Part shown: positions 1,379 through 7,784 of the stretch, piece by piece
How positions within the stretch are numbered: the stretch's first letter is position 1
Layout of the letters: every line of letters starts with the position of its first letter
Virus genome (UHGV): UHGV-0246164
DNA length: 35,288 nt
Strand: one strand, 5' to 3'
Source of the DNA: a virus
Made by a program: the position numbers and the translations under genes
The notes under the pieces: model-generated
Database searches by the model: none
What the model was told of the DNA's origin: nothing
Seen by the model: only the letters and a program-made list of their open reading frames with translations

Positions 1379-1732
1379 TTATGCCTCGCTTGTTACAGTC
1401 GTCTGGCCGTAGATTGTGTCAATGGAGGAAGTGAAAGTGACGCGGCGGCTGGTGCCGTCATAATTGGTATCGAAGGAAAGAATCGACAGAACGCCCGGCG
1501 TGTCCTGAATGCGTTCGCGTATAGCCAGGATGTAGACGTCTGACCGCTGTTTCCCAAGCACTGACTGAACATACGGCGTGCCTTCCGTCAGATCGAGAAA
1601 CCACTGACCGCGCCACAGTTCGAAACGGGTTTTTACGGCCTGGGCGACACATTCCGGACTGTCGATAAGGAAGGTGTCATCACCCTGCCCGAAAGTGTAA
1701 TCGCCTTCAGTATCTTCGCGACGGTATCGCAT
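1379..1732 (-). CDS. Baseplate wedge protein, gpW / Mu gp46-like
   Basis: 117 aa ORF immediately between the spike-like and J-like genes, with 1-nt gene junctions. Assignment by size and synteny. Confidence 0.5.
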   Translation of the reverse strand: MRYRREDTEGDYTFGQGDDTFLIDSPECVAQAVKTRFELWRGQWFLDLTEGTPYVQSVLGKQRSDVYILAIRERIQDTPGVLSILSFDTNYDGTSRRVTFTSSIDTIYGQTTVTSEA

Positions 1733-2472
1733 TATTGCGGCCCTCCGGTAGTTCCCCCGCCAGTCTGTACTCCGCCATGTTTATGCGTGGCGACACTGAT
1801 ACCAGAAGCTGTTACGTCATTCGTTACCGTCACCGGCCCAAGCATCGTCGCAGTACCGCCGCTTTCGCCCATTCCCTGAGACAGATTGCCATTAATCGTT
1901 ACGTTGCCGTTCAGCGTGATAGTCGGGGATGTGATTGTCGTTCCACCTTCAGCCGTAGCCGTGAGCTGGCCCGGTGTTTGAACGGTGATGTTATGTCCTG
2001 CGGCAACCTCTACGAACGCCGCACCATCATCGGTTCGCAGCTGCGCGGCGCTGGTACTGATACCGCTGATTTTCTGTGCTTGCGACTGCGGGCCAACGAT
2101 GGCGAACGCATCAGATAAGTCATGCTGTCGCGGATCGACGGTCTCCTGAACGCCGCCGCTCTGCCACCAGAAATCGATGCAACGGTCGGCAAAGATCAGT
2201 AGGCACTCGTCGCCTTCTTTTACCGGAAAGGTCAGCGTGCAACCGCCGCCGCGCGGGAAGATAACCGGCACATCCACCAGCGGTTTTAATTCGGTAGAGC
2301 CATCGCCAACAATACCGCGAAGCGCTACCTCTACTGTGCAGGTAACAGTGTCAGGATCGAACGACTGAATGATGCCTGGCATCGCTACGCGCATCTGGGT
2401 AGACACCGAATCGGCTATGGCCTGCGCGGTCTGCTGCTCGCCGCCGATCTGTGATTGAGTTGGAATTGGCAT
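1732..2472 (-). CDS. Baseplate central spike protein (gpV / Mu gp45-like) with Gly/Thr-rich C-terminus
   Basis: 246 aa ORF with a Gly/Thr-rich tail (...TGGGTTGGPQ). GGAG Shine-Dalgarno 7 nt upstream of ATG at 2472. Position in the baseplate cluster. Confidence 0.5.
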   Translation of the reverse strand: MPIPTQSQIGGEQQTAQAIADSVSTQMRVAMPGIIQSFDPDTVTCTVEVALRGIVGDGSTELKPLVDVPVIFPRGGGCTLTFPVKEGDECLLIFADRCIDFWWQSGGVQETVDPRQHDLSDAFAIVGPQSQAQKISGISTSAAQLRTDDGAAFVEVAAGHNITVQTPGQLTATAEGGTTITSPTITLNGNVTINGNLSQGMGESGGTATMLGPVTVTNDVTASGISVATHKHGGVQTGGGTTGGPQ

Positions 2473-2483
2473 AAAAACTCCAT

Positions 2484-2508
2484 AAAAAAACCCGCTCGGC
2501 GGCGGGTT
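2484..2508 (-). terminator. Intrinsic terminator closing the Phd-like/Doc moron
   Basis: On the minus strand: AACCCGC-cgccga-GCGGGTT followed by TTTTTTTATGGAGTTTTTAT. Lies between the doc stop (2531) and the spike gene start (2472). Confidence 0.6.
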
Positions 2509-2530
2509 GTGTACAATTTACTTTTTGCTA

Positions 2531-2938
2531 TCAGTAGCCAGTTATCGTATCTGCCAGCAGCTCATTCTTATAATCTGACAAAAGTTTAAGCGCCAAAGCA
2601 GTGTTATCGCAGTCGGCCTCTCCCGTAGCAGCAAAGATGGTCAGCTTGACTAACTCCATTGAGGTATTCAGTTCATAGCCATTCAAAAGCAAAAACACGC
2701 TGGCGGCCTGGAAAGCCGTTCGCTTATTGGCGTCATTAAAAGCGTGAGACTTCGCTATCGCAACCATGTACATAGCTGCAAATTTAAATAAATCCTCACA
2801 TCCTTCATACATGCGTAAGTTATCGACGCGATTGAGGGCACCTTCGAGTTTTCCCCGGTCTGGTTGTCCGCTATTTGGCAATGTGCTCTTCTGAATAGCG
2901 ATGACCTCATCTACCGAAAGGAATGTAATCTCAGTCAT
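2531..2938 (-). CDS. doc: Doc (death-on-curing) family toxin, Fic/Doc fold
   Basis: 135 aa ORF containing the Doc signature H-x-F-x-D-A-N-K-R (HAFNDANKRTAF). TAATG one-nucleotide overlap with the upstream antitoxin-like ORF. Confidence 0.8.
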   Translation of the reverse strand: MTEITFLSVDEVIAIQKSTLPNSGQPDRGKLEGALNRVDNLRMYEGCEDLFKFAAMYMVAIAKSHAFNDANKRTAFQAASVFLLLNGYELNTSMELVKLTIFAATGEADCDNTALALKLLSDYKNELLADTITGY

Positions 2939-3351
2939 TACTTATCTTCCAGTTTTTTTATGATGTCCGCATGCTTGGTCTGAGTATGTTGCAGAGCTTT
3001 GATAAATGACTCAGACACGCCCTGCAAAGCAACTGCTGCATTAGTGGCCTTCATCATAGTCTGGCGAGCCTCATCAGACTGAAGAAGGGCATCCAATTGC
3101 TTAGTAAGCTTCATGACACCCTCCGTTATCTGTGGTGACAAATTCGATGCAATTAATTGCGCAAGATGCGTGTCTATTGTTTTCGCAGATGTTTTTACCT
3201 CATCTGCGGAAGCGATTTCATCAACTGATTTTGCACTGATGACAAGGTCGGGCTTTCCGCGCTGCGTAACTGTGACGCTTTCACCAGAGCGTAAACAGTC
3301 CAGCGTTGCAGATAAATCCGATCGCATTTGCGTGTAAGTAATGATTTTCAT
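2938..3351 (-). CDS. Phd/YefM-like antitoxin with a long C-terminal extension
   Basis: N-terminus MKIITYTQMRSDLSATL...VTQRGKPDLVISA resembles the Phd/YefM fold. Preferred start is ATG at 3351 with a GAGGG Shine-Dalgarno (the track ORF begins at 3369). About 137 aa against roughly 73 for canonical Phd. Confidence 0.6.
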   Translation of the reverse strand: MKIITYTQMRSDLSATLDCLRSGESVTVTQRGKPDLVISAKSVDEIASADEVKTSAKTIDTHLAQLIASNLSPQITEGVMKLTKQLDALLQSDEARQTMMKATNAAVALQGVSESFIKALQHTQTKHADIIKKLEDK

Positions 3352-3362
3352 GGCACCCTCTC

Positions 3363-3374
3363 TGTACATGTACA
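3363..3374 (-). promoter_or_regulatory. Perfect 12-bp palindrome TGTACATGTACA upstream of the Phd-like start; candidate autoregulatory operator
   Basis: Palindrome read directly from the sequence, about 12 nt upstream of ATG 3351 in an AT-rich stretch. Phd-type antitoxins are known to bind palindromic operators. Confidence 0.4.
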
Positions 3375-3433
3375 GATTAGTGCATAATAAAAACGCGAGA
3401 TCAACGATTATTGATGTTTAAGGATGCGGATCA

Positions 3434-3784
3434 TCATTTCACCTTCACGCAGTCGTATGTTGCATACTGACGCGGCGCATCCATGCTGGCTTGCAACCAC
3501 TGTGCGTTGAGAATGGCTTTGCCGTTGCGCTTGATGTACTCAAGCCCAACCCAGCGGCCGGGTTGGTCGGTTGCAACCATCCATTCTGCTTTCATGTTTT
3601 GGTAGTCATCTTTAGACTTGAGAAAAGACATTTTTTGCGTTTCAGGTTTTACCCCGTTAATAAGCATTAGTCCTTCTTTGCCCGCAGTGAGGCGATACGG
3701 CCCGCACTGAGTATCAGCTAAGGCCTCTGACGTGCCGACAACTGATAAAAGAACACCACAAATTAGAAGTTTGGCCTTACCCAT
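3434..3784 (-). CDS. Small secreted (periplasmic) protein of unknown function
   Basis: 116 aa ORF with an N-terminal signal peptide (MGKAKLLICGVLLSVVGTSEALA then DTQCG) and a second Cys near the C-terminus. Overlaps the hub gene stop by 22 nt. Looks lower in GC than the flanks by eye. Confidence 0.55.
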   Translation of the reverse strand: MGKAKLLICGVLLSVVGTSEALADTQCGPYRLTAGKEGLMLINGVKPETQKMSFLKSKDDYQNMKAEWMVATDQPGRWVGLEYIKRNGKAILNAQWLQASMDAPRQYATYDCVKVK

Positions 3785-4851
3785 CTTATACCTGCCATTT
3801 TTTTAAGCGTGTCCTGACTAACCATGTCACGAGCACCACGCGCAAAACACATCAAATCCATGTACCACGCCTGACCTCTGGTGTCGCCAGTATAGTCGAT
3901 AGCTTTGACGATATAAACGCCATCTGTCGCAATGCTGGCAGCCTGTGACGTTGTGCCGGTCAGTACGCGGTTGCCGTTCTCTTCCGTTTCAGTGATACGC
4001 CCGGGCGACTGTGCGATTTCGCTATTGCCGAGCGCGGCGCGGTACACCGAAGCCTGATCGAGCTGGATAAGACCATTAATGCGGATGTTTGGGTTTATCA
4101 GGCACCGCACGTTTACGCCGCCGCCCATTGTCTGTTGCGGCATACCGATCAGGCCAGTATTGGCATTCAACACAATGGCTTCGTGAATATATTTATCCTC
4201 CGGCACCATCTGGACCTGACCATCCACCAGTTGCCATGTCGCTTTGCACTGCGCAGCAATATTATCCATCACGTTGCGGCTGGATGAGTAAATCGCGCGG
4301 CCACGAGGAAACACGGTATCAGGAAAATCGCCGGTAATGCCCTGTGTCACGCCGAACGCGTTGAAATCCTGCATCGTCGCCCGGTGCAGATCCGCAACGG
4401 TATAGCCAGCGGCAAGCGTGGTGATGGTGGTCGCATAGAGGAACGCTTCGTGATCACCAATGGCCTGAATCAACACCCAGGAATCCGTAATGTTGTCCTT
4501 CCCGGTGACGGTGAAGCGAATATCACCGTCAAAAATCAGGCCGTAGTTCTGACCGTTCACCTGCCCTATCTGGTCTGGTGAAATCTCCCGGGACACACCA
4601 ACCTGGCTCGCATCAACATCCGGCGCTATACCGTCATACCCGGCAATGATGCGAATTTTGGCAAACTCCTGCCCAAGTATCTTGTTCGTGGTATCGGTCG
4701 AAAGGTTGTAAATTTTCACGTTCGCCACGCGCGGCCAGCTTGTGTCTGCCCACTCGATCTGGAACGTGACCTTAAAATCAGACAGGGAAACGCCCTGCCC
4801 GTTCTGGTCCAACAGTTGCAGCTCAAAATGGCGCATCCAGTTAAGAGACAT
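3763..4851 (-). CDS. Baseplate hub protein (P2 gpD / Mu gp44-like)
   Basis: 362 aa ORF downstream of the tape measure and two small tail genes. Assignment by synteny in a myovirus-type tail module. Confidence 0.5.
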   Translation of the reverse strand: MSLNWMRHFELQLLDQNGQGVSLSDFKVTFQIEWADTSWPRVANVKIYNLSTDTTNKILGQEFAKIRIIAGYDGIAPDVDASQVGVSREISPDQIGQVNGQNYGLIFDGDIRFTVTGKDNITDSWVLIQAIGDHEAFLYATTITTLAAGYTVADLHRATMQDFNAFGVTQGITGDFPDTVFPRGRAIYSSSRNVMDNIAAQCKATWQLVDGQVQMVPEDKYIHEAIVLNANTGLIGMPQQTMGGGVNVRCLINPNIRINGLIQLDQASVYRAALGNSEIAQSPGRITETEENGNRVLTGTTSQAASIATDGVYIVKAIDYTGDTRGQAWYMDLMCFARGARDMVSQDTLKKMAGIRWVRPNF

Positions 4852-5193: not shown

Positions 5194-5781
5194 TTAGTCC
5201 ATCAAACCACTTGTTGACTTAATTACCGATTCATTTACTGGGGTGGTGGATTTAGTCCCGGAATTCTGCACCGCAGATGTACTAACCCCGTCCTGCATAT
5301 CGGATTTATCAGCAACGGTGACATTTTTTGTATGCGTTATGATGACTTCACGCAGGGTAAGCGTGCAGTTCAGCACGTTCTCGCTGGTTTTATCGGTCGT
5401 CACCTCAATGGCTCGCACCAGCATATTGGTGTACACCCTCTTCCCGGTAACCACATCGAACGGTACGCGCTCAAGCTGCATATCCAGCAGCTTTTGGTAT
5501 GTCTCCTTTGGGCTAAGCCCAGCGCTAAGACCGATTGAAGATGTATCAATGAAATCCAGCAACGAACCGCCACCAGCGAAGCCGCATTCCATTGTGACTT
5601 CGCTGGGACGCTTATACGCATGATCGGCGATGAAACCCGACGCGCTATTCGTTGTTGGTTTTTCCACCGGGTGCTCAGTAATTTCGAGCGCATCAGAATG
5701 CTTTTCAGAAACAACCACGCTGGGAATTAATATGCCAATTCGCCGGGATTGCCGGCGAAAAATAGCGGAGAGAATATCCAT
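5194..5781 (-). CDS. Tail protein (putative; Mu gp43 position)
   Basis: 195 aa ORF whose start overlaps the tape measure stop (TAATG). Confidence 0.4.
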   Translation of the reverse strand: MDILSAIFRRQSRRIGILIPSVVVSEKHSDALEITEHPVEKPTTNSASGFIADHAYKRPSEVTMECGFAGGGSLLDFIDTSSIGLSAGLSPKETYQKLLDMQLERVPFDVVTGKRVYTNMLVRAIEVTTDKTSENVLNCTLTLREVIITHTKNVTVADKSDMQDGVSTSAVQNSGTKSTTPVNESVIKSTSGLMD

Positions 5782-7784
5782 TAGCTCGGCACCGTTCGAA
5801 GTTGTTGAGTTAGTTGTGAATTAACGTTCTTCTGCCGCTCAACTGTGATATTGGCAGCCTCACGTGGATCAGATACACCGTGAATATTAATAACCGTTTC
5901 TTGCTGTATGTTTTGTGAAGCACCGCCACCAGCGGCCATACGAACCAATTCACTTGGGTAAGGGTTTCTCCCGTTCTCATGATGGATAATTCCATTCATC
6001 AGAGAGGACATTACCTGCGGATCTTTAAGGTTGAGAATGGCATCAGGAGCCACACCCATCATTTTCGATAACTGAGCAATGTAAGCACCGGTATTATTTT
6101 CATTCCCCGGTGCCCACGTAGAGATTATATCGTTAAGGGTTTGCAGCGGCTTGCCTGTCGTCTTACCTTCAAAGTAGCGCATTAATTGTCGGGAAAGCGC
6201 TTTCAGGCCATCATAGGCAGTTTCAAACCGGGCGAACCTGCCGCCAGGCCTTTCGAGCGTCGCCCCAGATTGCCCACGAAAGTCGATATTACCGGGGTTA
6301 TTATTTCTAATACCTCGTGGAGCTTTAGCAGACTGGGCATGTTGGTCAGGCTCATCATCACCGAACCAGCCGCGCACCGTTCGGCCCACGCTGCGAGGAT
6401 CGAATCCCCAGTGCTCTTTAATCCAGTCGGCGGTACCGTTGGCGCTGTCTGTTACCATCGGCATCGCTGACGGATTTTCGCTGCCCTGATTAAGCATCTG
6501 TTTGCCGATGCTGGCGGCATCAGCCCAGCGGCCATCTTTAATGGCGTTGAGCAGGTCGGCGATCATGTTCAGCATTTTGCTGAACTCACCCATCTGGTCA
6601 ATGAAGTTGCTAAAATCCCACTTTAGGGACCATGACTTGGGGTCAATACCGAGCAACTTAGCCAGCGCTTTTGTCAGGTCCGTAACAGTCTTTTTCAGGT
6701 CACCAATCATTTTGACGGCCTGATCAATTTCAGTCTTCCATTTCCCCCAGTCAATCAGGCTTTTGCCACCTTCTTTCCACGTCTGGTAATCATCCAAGAG
6801 CAGACCAAGTGCAATAATAAGCGTCGTTATCATGCCCAAGGGTGATGACATGAAAGCGGTATTTAGCAGCCGCCATGCAACCAACAGCCCACTGAACAAT
6901 GCGATAAGCTGCTGCGTGGCTGGGTTCAGCTTTTTGAACCAGGCGATCACACCCTCAACAGCTTGCCCAGTTCGCCATAACACGCGGGTAATCGCGTCAC
7001 CTGCCCAGAGAATTCCTTTGATGATCTTCGTGATGACCGCTTCAATCTTCGGCCAGTTGTCGAGTATCTGCCTGCGGAAGTTATCAATACTGCCAGCAAG
7101 GCCACCAGCTAGGTTAGAGCCAATCTTGTCTTTCGCCTGTCCAAGCGTCATCGTCAGATTACGCATGGAGGTCATGAAAATATTGGACTGTTTAGCCGCT
7201 GACTCAGCATTAAAACCAATACGCTTTGCCGTCAACGCGTACTCAGAACTGAGCTGCCCCATCCCTCTGCGCATCGCCATCAGCGTGTTTTCATCGATGC
7301 CGAGCATCTGCGCGTATTGTTTCGCGCGGTAATACGGCATGTTGTTGAGCTTTTGCCCAACGCCAGTAAAGATGGCCGCAGTATCACGCATCTTTCCGCT
7401 GGCATCGCGAGTCTGTACGCCCAGACGGTTCAGGAACCCTTCCGCCCCCGGATTGCTACGCATGAAGCCAGCCAGCCCTTCTAGGGAAGACATAGCCGAC
7501 TCAGCGCTGGCACCGGTTTGCGATGCGGCATAGCCCAGCGCTTTGATGCCCTGGACGCTGGCCCCCGTCCGCTGGGATGCCCAGTAAATTTTATCCAGAC
7601 CATTCGCAATCTGGGTGGTAAATCCGACAATGCTCAGCGCTGCGCCTTCCACCACCGCGCCGACCTTCAGAACGTTCGCGGTAACGCCTTTCAGCACAGC
7701 TTCGAACTTATTAGCGCCAGCCTGATCGATATCGAACCCCAGCGAAACAAGGAAGTCTTTAATCGTATCTGCGTTACCGCTCAT
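5781..7784 (-). CDS. Tail tape measure protein
   Basis: 667 aa ORF with Ala/Gly-rich helical composition and a hydrophobic central segment. Sits directly downstream of the frameshifted chaperone pair. Confidence 0.7.
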   Translation of the reverse strand: MSGNADTIKDFLVSLGFDIDQAGANKFEAVLKGVTANVLKVGAVVEGAALSIVGFTTQIANGLDKIYWASQRTGASVQGIKALGYAASQTGASAESAMSSLEGLAGFMRSNPGAEGFLNRLGVQTRDASGKMRDTAAIFTGVGQKLNNMPYYRAKQYAQMLGIDENTLMAMRRGMGQLSSEYALTAKRIGFNAESAAKQSNIFMTSMRNLTMTLGQAKDKIGSNLAGGLAGSIDNFRRQILDNWPKIEAVITKIIKGILWAGDAITRVLWRTGQAVEGVIAWFKKLNPATQQLIALFSGLLVAWRLLNTAFMSSPLGMITTLIIALGLLLDDYQTWKEGGKSLIDWGKWKTEIDQAVKMIGDLKKTVTDLTKALAKLLGIDPKSWSLKWDFSNFIDQMGEFSKMLNMIADLLNAIKDGRWADAASIGKQMLNQGSENPSAMPMVTDSANGTADWIKEHWGFDPRSVGRTVRGWFGDDEPDQHAQSAKAPRGIRNNNPGNIDFRGQSGATLERPGGRFARFETAYDGLKALSRQLMRYFEGKTTGKPLQTLNDIISTWAPGNENNTGAYIAQLSKMMGVAPDAILNLKDPQVMSSLMNGIIHHENGRNPYPSELVRMAAGGGASQNIQQETVINIHGVSDPREAANITVERQKNVNSQLTQQLRTVPS

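Follow-up and report, generated by a model that had tools for sequence, protein, structure and literature searches.

What does a small, apparently exported protein do when its gene lies in a phage tail module, between the genes for the baseplate hub and the membrane-puncturing spike? This question is raised by ORF116, a gene in what we call the window, the whole stretch of 35,288 nucleotides analysed here (UHGV virus genome UHGV-0246164). The initial annotation of the locus had described a signal-peptide protein encoded within the tail module, immediately upstream of a Phd-like/Doc pair, and had suggested that it is a periplasmic moron, possibly a receptor-blocking or serum-resistance-type factor. 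Its placement beside the toxin-antitoxin pair is borne out by profile matches of the two downstream genes (TIGR01552, TIGR01550, and PF02661), and the ORF itself is confirmed by the ORF listing, a PHROG profile match, 91 homologues, purifying selection, and a confident structure prediction. The positions of ORF116, its parts, and its neighbours are given in Table 1.

Table 1. Positions of ORF116, its parts, and neighbouring features in the window
Feature	Position	Strand	Description and evidence
ORF116, 116 aa	3434..3784	minus	ATG start, TGA stop; phrog_3443 / "STY1065/STY2022 family phage-derived protein" family
Signal peptide of ORF116, aa 1-23, MGKAKLLICGVLLSVVGTSEALA	3716..3784	minus	Hydropathy and A-x-A analysis; predicted SPase I cleavage after A23
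Mature domain of ORF116, aa 24-116	3437..3715	minus	Predicted eight-stranded up-and-down beta-barrel
Single extra base	3797..3797	minus	T on the coding strand, following an A7 run; absent from ECONIH5 and other relatives (DNA alignment)
Candidate sigma-70-like promoter	3889..3917	minus	TTTATA-17-TATACT; within the hub 3′ end, ~105 nt upstream of the ORF116 ATG
Baseplate hub gene (Pam3 gp19 / E217 gp41 type), 362 aa	3763..4851	minus	phrog_196 (E 6.7e-84), PF22759; immediately upstream of ORF116
Perfect 14-bp palindrome CTGTACATGTACAG	3362..3375		Just upstream of phd; read directly from the sequence
Phd/YefM-like antitoxin	2938..3351	minus	PF02604, TIGR01552 N-terminal match; 137 aa in the ECONIH5 annotation
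Doc (Fic-fold) toxin	2531..2938	minus	TIGR01550 (E 6.2e-23), PF02661, phrog_577
Intrinsic terminator	2489..2508	minus	AACCCGC-CGCCGA-GCGGGTT + T5; closes the slot just before gpV
gpV-type membrane-puncturing spike	1732..2472	minus	PF18352 (spike N-terminal domain), PF18946 (Apex), TIGR01644; conserved right border of the slot
Tape measure protein	5781-7784	minus	C-terminal endolysin-like domain, aa 487-613
Conserved tape measure motif	6747-6803	minus	aa 328-346 of the tape measure protein

The family to which ORF116 belongs is already catalogued and is functionally uncharacterised. ORF116 gives a significant full-length match to PHROG 3443 (E 3e-46 in a PHROG profile search, with residues 6-116 aligned to profile positions 5-114 of 115), while an E. 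coli homologue at 77-78% identity carries the RefSeq name listed in Table 1, a name that was not reproduced here since NCBIfam release 20.0 holds no model matching ORF116. ORF116 agrees with the family in size, in its signal peptide and cysteine pair, and in lying after the hub; there is no difference of substance, and it is a member. Homologues in a large protein collection number 91, all of them "hypothetical" where named, and are found in E. coli, Salmonella, Klebsiella, Citrobacter, Enterobacter, Serratia, Yersinia, and their allies. The family is nonetheless narrow, because an exhaustive profile search over 1.84 billion representatives returned only 59 clusters; within E. coli, relatives are present in 40 of 5426 genomes. 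Searches of the Pfam, NCBIfam, and PADLOC profile libraries gave no match to a functional family, and no paper was found on the family when the literature was searched for STY1065, STY2022, SEN34, and periplasmic exclusion together with the tape measure.

ORF116 is a real gene under purifying selection on its mature part. When dN/dS was calculated by region, synonymous sites in the family proved mostly saturated, and wherever dS is unsaturated the ratio for the mature part lies well below 1 (for 873.10 against AF20, e.g. 0.05/1.03 and 0.05/1.10), with no sign of diversifying selection. The base composition of the gene is no mark of foreign origin, as its GC content of 0.490 compares with 0.502 for the window, 0.533 for the hub gene, and 0.574 for gpV, and only phd and doc (0.45) stand out.

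The N-terminus of ORF116, MGKAKLLICGVLLSVVGTSEALA followed by DTQCG, has the build of a Sec signal peptide. Two lysines (K3 and K5) give a charged n-region, the hydrophobic core L6-V16 exceeds the roughly 10 residues expected of an h-region and reaches a Kyte-Doolittle mean of up to 3.05 over 11 residues, and A21-L22-A23 places small residues at positions -3 and -1, with cleavage by signal peptidase I predicted between A23 and D24. This three-part design of charge, hydrophobic core, and A-x-A is kept in all 40 of the 40 homologues examined while the sequence itself drifts, and dN is far higher in the signal peptide than in the mature part of the family. The typical Sec signal peptide and the cleavage after A-L-A that had been described from the first reading are thus upheld by sequence analysis, and ORF116 is probably a Sec-exported, periplasmic protein.

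The two cysteines that had been noted in the mature part are likewise present, C27 (3704-3706) and C112 (3449-3451), near the two ends of the domain; there are exactly two, both are invariant across the family, even in relatives at 25-30% identity, and they probably form a disulfide. A third cysteine, C9, falls within the signal peptide. The AlphaFold (AF2) model of ORF116 is an eight-stranded up-and-down beta-barrel (pLDDT 83.8), whose closest structural matches are avidins, FABP/lipocalins, and the Cap15 barrel. The likeness to avidin/streptavidin-type (calycin-like) barrels is one of fold class and topology only, at 7-10% identity. No HMM relationship to avidin was found, a sequence profile search of the PDB returning only noise (avidin at E 0.18, and IscB), and nothing points to biotin binding.

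The 22-nt overlap between the hub gene and ORF116 that had also been reported (3763-3784) exists in the window, but as a trait of this sequence and not of the locus. The ECONIH5 prophage, at 99% identity, and other relatives have a single nucleotide between the hub stop codon and the ORF116 ATG, with junctions reading TAAgATG, TGAtATG, and TAAcATG, and the ECONIH5 annotation accordingly ends the hub before the ORF116 homologue. The overlap in the window arises because of one extra base (Table 1), which shifts the reading frame at the hub end, so that the last residues become KKMAGIRWVRPNF instead of KKRQV and the hub gains 8 aa. Either a true variant or a sequencing error in the homopolymer could account for this base.

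The interval between hub and spike is a cassette, composed of a conserved first gene (ORF116), variable cargo, and a conserved terminator. In annotated SEN34-like temperate myophages of Enterobacterales, the ORF116 homologue is always found after the hub and before gpV; it directly follows the hub in ST340-VIM1phi10.1, vB_EcoM-683R1, SEN34, Mulock, ECONIH5, 873.10, AF20, Omnitron, and one further locus, L011. The gene downstream of it, in contrast, is different in almost every relative. Phd/Doc is the cargo in this window and in ECONIH5, while other hub-gpV intervals hold a DUF4236 gene on the opposite strand, a multi-pass membrane protein (phrog_23273), an HExxH protein (phrog_36675), phrog_19013, and several other exported proteins. 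As a cargo hotspot, the slot corresponds to positions 2473-3784 of the window and to the equivalent hub-to-gpV intervals in loci L001-L009, L011, and L014. Whatever the function of ORF116, it is a compact and well-delimited cargo site that could be mined for toxin-antitoxin and defence genes.

Transcription of this cassette could take two forms. A Shine-Dalgarno sequence precedes the ORF116 homologue at every locus, and ORF116 is probably read as part of the late tail transcript, given that only 1 nt normally separates its ATG from the hub stop codon. There is no terminator directly after ORF116, only the strong slot-closing one at 2508-2489, and equivalents of the latter precede gpV in Omnitron, AF20, and SEN34 despite their different cargo. 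Pre-gpV terminators in relatives were located at 4834-4852 of L014, 2590-2607 of L007, and 4770-4789 of L003; in several phages the intrinsic terminator is followed by TTTTTATGG, whatever the cargo. As this terminator stands immediately upstream of gpV, late tail transcription must read through it, which would presumably need antitermination, while lysogenic transcription of the slot, if any, would be insulated from the tail genes. In the lysogen, a weak promoter within the 3′-terminal part of the hub gene may drive ORF116 as well. The candidate site has a consensus score of 9/12, in a scan that was not above shuffled expectation, and it is also present in L014 and L007. Its -10 element ends in a T that belongs to a Thr codon, ACT, and this codon is invariant in 12 of 12 usable loci, whereas every other four-fold site nearby varies, a pattern suggestive of a promoter within the hub 3′ end.

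A functional link between ORF116 and the adjacent toxin-antitoxin pair, a question that the initial annotation had raised, is contradicted by the distribution of the genes. A relative of ORF116 is joined to this Phd/Doc in only 2 E. coli genomes, against the 40 that carry any relative. Other E. coli genomes match a Phd/Doc pair at 82% identity, and these matches stop short of ORF116. The pair also has its own Shine-Dalgarno sequence, its own upstream palindrome, and a lower GC content. From the variability of the cargo, the co-occurrence counts, and these signals of phd-doc, it follows that ORF116 and Phd/Doc are neighbours, not partners. A three-gene unit of ORF116, Phd, and Doc was rejected on co-occurrence, the phages examined carrying other cargo. 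The palindrome is a candidate operator of a separate phd-doc promoter. The likely start of phd is the ATG at 3351, as annotated in ECONIH5, which is preceded by GAGAGGG; the longest ORF (143 aa) starts at 3369, inside the palindrome. The Phd-like protein is about twice the usual length, and its Phd/YefM match is limited to the N-terminal ~45 residues. In E. coli ABWA45 (NZ_CP022154.1; hits H26 and H107), Phd/Doc and gpV are ~99% identical to the window, while ORF116 is matched only from nucleotide 136 onwards, at 83%. This partial match places a recombination breakpoint inside ORF116, and the conserved 3′ two-thirds of the gene may serve as a crossover site.

Whether ORF116 is a part of the tail was examined by synteny. 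The tail module of the window is of the Pam3/E217 type, in which the tube initiator (Dit-like), plug (Pam3_gp18), hub, spike, sheath initiator, and baseplate J are all assigned to ORFs other than ORF116. The solved Pam3 virion has a complete baseplate of six components, with spike gp20 coming directly after hub gp19 (PMC9942802). Three phages whose hubs are closely related to that of the window do without the gene: in Hafnia phage yong1 and phage EKP1 the homologue is absent and other small genes take its place, and in Providencia phage PSTCR3 the hub abuts gpV, with the whole slot absent. Where the gene is present, it is always more diverged than its flanks (65-78% against 96-99% identity). 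Omnitron is 96% identical to the window in the hub, 65% in ORF116, and 98% in gpV, and the corresponding values for 873.10 are 97%, 78%, and 99%; hubs 96-98% identical to that of the window are found in Omnitron, 873.10, AF20, and ECONIH5. The ORF116 allele has been exchanged independently of the flanking genes. With regard to EKP1, the record OM284015.1 (L009, "Elizabethkingia phage EKP1") has 76% nucleotide identity with the baseplate J region of the window and a whole enterobacterial-type tail module, and its recorded attribution to a Bacteroidota host looks doubtful.

Divergent relatives of ORF116 (29-37% identity, with the same cysteine pair) occur as lone chromosomal genes, many of them in species of Pantoea and Erwinia, and genes for a hub, spike, J, or tape measure protein are absent within 6 kb of them. 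One lies after fliE in P. agglomerans, one at a second locus between cls-yciY and yciI, and one at a third locus near tsx. For the genome scan that covered these stand-alone homologues a narrower alignment was used, as the broad family alignments have no stretch that is conserved enough. The individual genes, from Erwiniaceae and others, lie at 6001-6345 of L021 (Pantoea agglomerans), 5001-5357 of L019, 5001-5339 of L015, and 5001-5342 of L018, and one of their neighbours is an Hcp gene.

Because relatives lack the gene, the Pam3 baseplate is complete without it, and homologues stand alone on chromosomes, ORF116 is best regarded as an accessory envelope protein and not as a tail part. No homology to a baseplate component was found, nor any clear match to a tail structural component of the kind that would speak against an accessory role. 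We are fairly confident that ORF116 is an exported periplasmic accessory protein that has no part in the virion and is not tied to Phd/Doc. The suggestion that it is a moron-like, non-structural gene thereby gains support from its absence in yong1, EKP1, and PSTCR3, its faster divergence, its chromosomal homologues, and the terminator of the slot. Set against the Juhala/Hendrix definition of a moron, as restated in PMC3594210, ORF116 is variably present among close relatives (yong1, EKP1, and PSTCR3, together with the independent exchange of its allele), while a deviant base composition is not found.

How such a protein might act is approached through the tape measure protein and a pair of unusual relatives. 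The C-terminal domain of the window tape measure protein matches PDB 7q47_A (E 6.5e-19) and phrog_7182, "tail injection transglycosylase", while the Pfam model for an SLT domain does not reach E 0.01. Upstream of this domain, following hydrophobic segments, lies the most conserved motif of the protein, WK[NE]GGKSLI[ND]W, which is conserved in nine loci. Two distant relatives of ORF116, P0093 (L011 6001-6879) and P0114, are lipoprotein fusions, one of them located in the same post-hub slot, with a lipobox LSGC and a ~175-aa N-domain ahead of the barrel. Both carry a near copy of the tape measure motif (LASDDCNTWKNGGKSLINW in the fusions, LLLDDYQTWKEGGKSLIDW in the tape measure protein; BLASTP E 3e-5 and 8e-4), located in the extra N-domain and absent from ORF116 itself. 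The N-domain has no match in Pfam or in the phage collection. The motif in the fusions could be a decoy or a captured fragment; since it resides in an extra domain of relatives, it bears on ORF116 through guilt by association only.

These observations can be drawn together in a tentative explanation, which we hold with somewhat less than even confidence as a whole: ORF116 would be an exported cassette protein that protects the envelope against incoming phages. The pre-protein would be exported by the Sec pathway and cut by signal peptidase I after A23, and the mature protein would reside in the periplasm as a soluble eight-stranded beta-barrel, probably clamped by the C27-C112 disulfide. As the conserved first gene of the swappable hub-gpV cassette in SEN34-like temperate myophages, ORF116 would protect the lysogen or the infected cell at the envelope. 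The more specific proposal, that it excludes incoming phage at the penetration or injection step, is possible and somewhat doubtful. Here, ORF116 would interfere with an incoming contractile-tail phage after adsorption, as the tail tip and the tape measure protein with its peptidoglycan hydrolase cross the periplasm, and superinfection exclusion would resemble that by HK97 gp15, P1 Sim, or T4 Spackle.

Hints in favour of exclusion come from the location of the gene, which is fixed beside tail-tip genes and not fibre genes and has typical lysogen cargo as its slot neighbours, and from the tape measure protein, whose endolysin-like domain must work in the periplasm and whose motif is copied by the lipoprotein fusions; HK97 gp15 provides a precedent. 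Against it, the chromosomal homologues beside flagellar and housekeeping genes would fit a role in host physiology equally well, neither diversifying selection nor a foreign base composition is seen, and the candidate promoter for expression in the lysogen is a weak consensus site inside coding sequence that does not rise above chance. The boldest form of the proposal, which we rate as distinctly unlikely, would make the ORF116 family a new class of periplasmic superinfection-exclusion factor that intercepts the tape measure protein or the tail-tip complex, with the lipoprotein variants acting as WKEGGKSLIDW decoys and ORF116 marking the entry to an undescribed hub-spike hotspot for defence and cargo. 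Were exclusion true, prophages of E. coli, Salmonella, Klebsiella, and related hosts would have a new means of shutting out related myophages, with relevance to host range in phage therapy, and a handle would be gained on the periplasmic role of the tape measure protein. Were it false, ORF116 would be one more uncharacterised, already catalogued exported prophage protein. The leads with most promise are the cargo slot between hub and spike and the presence of the tape-measure motif in lipoprotein variants.

Among the alternatives, the one that survives best, while still unlikely, is that ORF116 is a periplasmic binding protein serving host physiology, in which a small calycin/avidin-like barrel would hold a lipid, metal, cofactor, peptidoglycan fragment, or other small molecule or constituent of the envelope and benefit the lysogen in a manner unrelated to exclusion. 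Its best structural matches are indeed ligand-binding barrels, Pantoea and Erwinia carry divergent homologues as ordinary genes of the chromosome, and the mature part is under purifying instead of diversifying selection. Against such a role stand the locking of the phage gene to one position beside tail-tip genes and the tape-measure motif of the fusion relatives. Moreover, no ligand-binding residues can be transferred at 7-10% identity, and a mature domain of ~93 residues would leave little room for a cavity, as estimated from its length.

Improbable, too, is the original suggestion, a Cor/Llp/Bor/Lom-type factor by which the outer surface would be changed or a phage receptor plugged. An exported protein in a tail module recalls cor, llp, lom, and bor (PMC3594210), lipoprotein-anchored variants occupy the same slot, and a soluble protein in the periplasm might in principle attach to an outer-membrane receptor from the inner side. 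The particular analogies fail on the protein itself. A Bor/Cor/Llp-type lipoprotein was rejected, as no lipobox ([LVI][ASTVI][GAS]C) is present in ORF116: C9 is preceded by L-L-I, which puts Ile at -1, with the hydrophobic core still to come, and the cleavage motif is the SPase I site A-L-A followed by D. An outer-membrane barrel of the Lom/Ail/OmpX kind was rejected as well, the protein being too short and too polar, with no C-terminal aromatic residue, and Pfam gave no match to the Lom/Ail or Bor families. ORF116 also adjoins hub and spike, not the genes for receptor-binding fibres. Of the envelope moron proposed in the initial annotation, the exported and moron-like character stands, while its analogies to Lom, Bor, and Cor do not; nothing points to a serum-resistance-type factor.

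About equally improbable is that ORF116 is a periplasmic inhibitor or immunity protein directed against peptidoglycan hydrolases, be it the lysin of an incoming tail (as for Spackle), T6SS effectors, or lysozymes. This alternative overlaps the envelope-protection reading and specifies enzyme inhibition as the mechanism, and the endolysin-like domain of the tape measure protein would be one conceivable target. In a separate comparison, assignment of ORF116 to the PliC/MliC family or to other periplasmic lysozyme inhibitors was dropped, with no profile match or close structural match.

Slightly less probable again is a late lytic helper, made only with the tail genes, that would modify the envelope of the dying cell, for example by stopping progeny from injecting into debris or infected cells. 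T5 Llp is known to stop progeny phage in this way, preventing injection into debris or already infected cells. An ATG 1 nt after the hub stop in relatives and a Shine-Dalgarno sequence at every locus make translation coupled to the late operon likely, and no convincing private promoter was found. Against this, a conserved terminator closes the slot, whose remaining genes are cargo of the kind typically expressed in lysogens, the nucleotide-level constraint on the candidate -10 speaks for an internal promoter, and the chromosomal homologues work without any phage. Last, and very improbably, ORF116 might help to build the tail, as a minor constituent of the baseplate or as a chaperone, with a hydrophobic N-terminus that is no signal peptide. 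The fixed position between hub and spike and the tight coupling to the hub gene speak for such a role, which was nevertheless rejected on synteny. Functional relatives lack the gene, and solved baseplates of Pam3 type contain nothing like its product; the N-terminus shows the evolution of a signal peptide, and a pair of invariant cysteines suits an oxidising compartment. There are, in addition, homologues outside any phage, and lipoprotein versions occur.

Protection of the envelope by an exported accessory protein thus remains the reading that we tentatively favour, and it can be set beside three groups of known phage proteins. Like ORF116, Cor, T5 Llp, and lambda Bor (lipoproteins) and lambda Lom (an outer-membrane barrel) are envelope proteins encoded among or beside the tail genes of temperate or virulent coliphages. 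ORF116 itself adjoins the hub and spike and not the genes for receptor-binding proteins. HK97 gp15, a moron of the tail operon, has homologues on chromosomes and prevents the genome from being injected (PMC3594210). Similar to gp15, which is related to YebO, ORF116 is a small envelope protein in a tail operon, patchily distributed among related phages and with chromosomal homologues outside prophages. The two are non-homologous, gp15 being an inner-membrane protein and ORF116 a predicted cleaved, soluble beta-barrel. The promoter, terminator, and phenotype of gp15 have been demonstrated, whereas those of ORF116 are at most predicted, and the genome entry of incoming tails, on which gp15 acts, is for ORF116 only a proposed point of action.

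A further parallel to the proposed mechanism is offered by T4 Spackle and P1 Sim, which are Sec-exported periplasmic superinfection-exclusion proteins that act after adsorption. Neither has a sequence or fold relationship to ORF116, as searches of the PDB and BFVD gave no such match. The target of T4 Spackle is the tail-tip lysozyme, and the tape measure protein of the window likewise carries a lysin domain.
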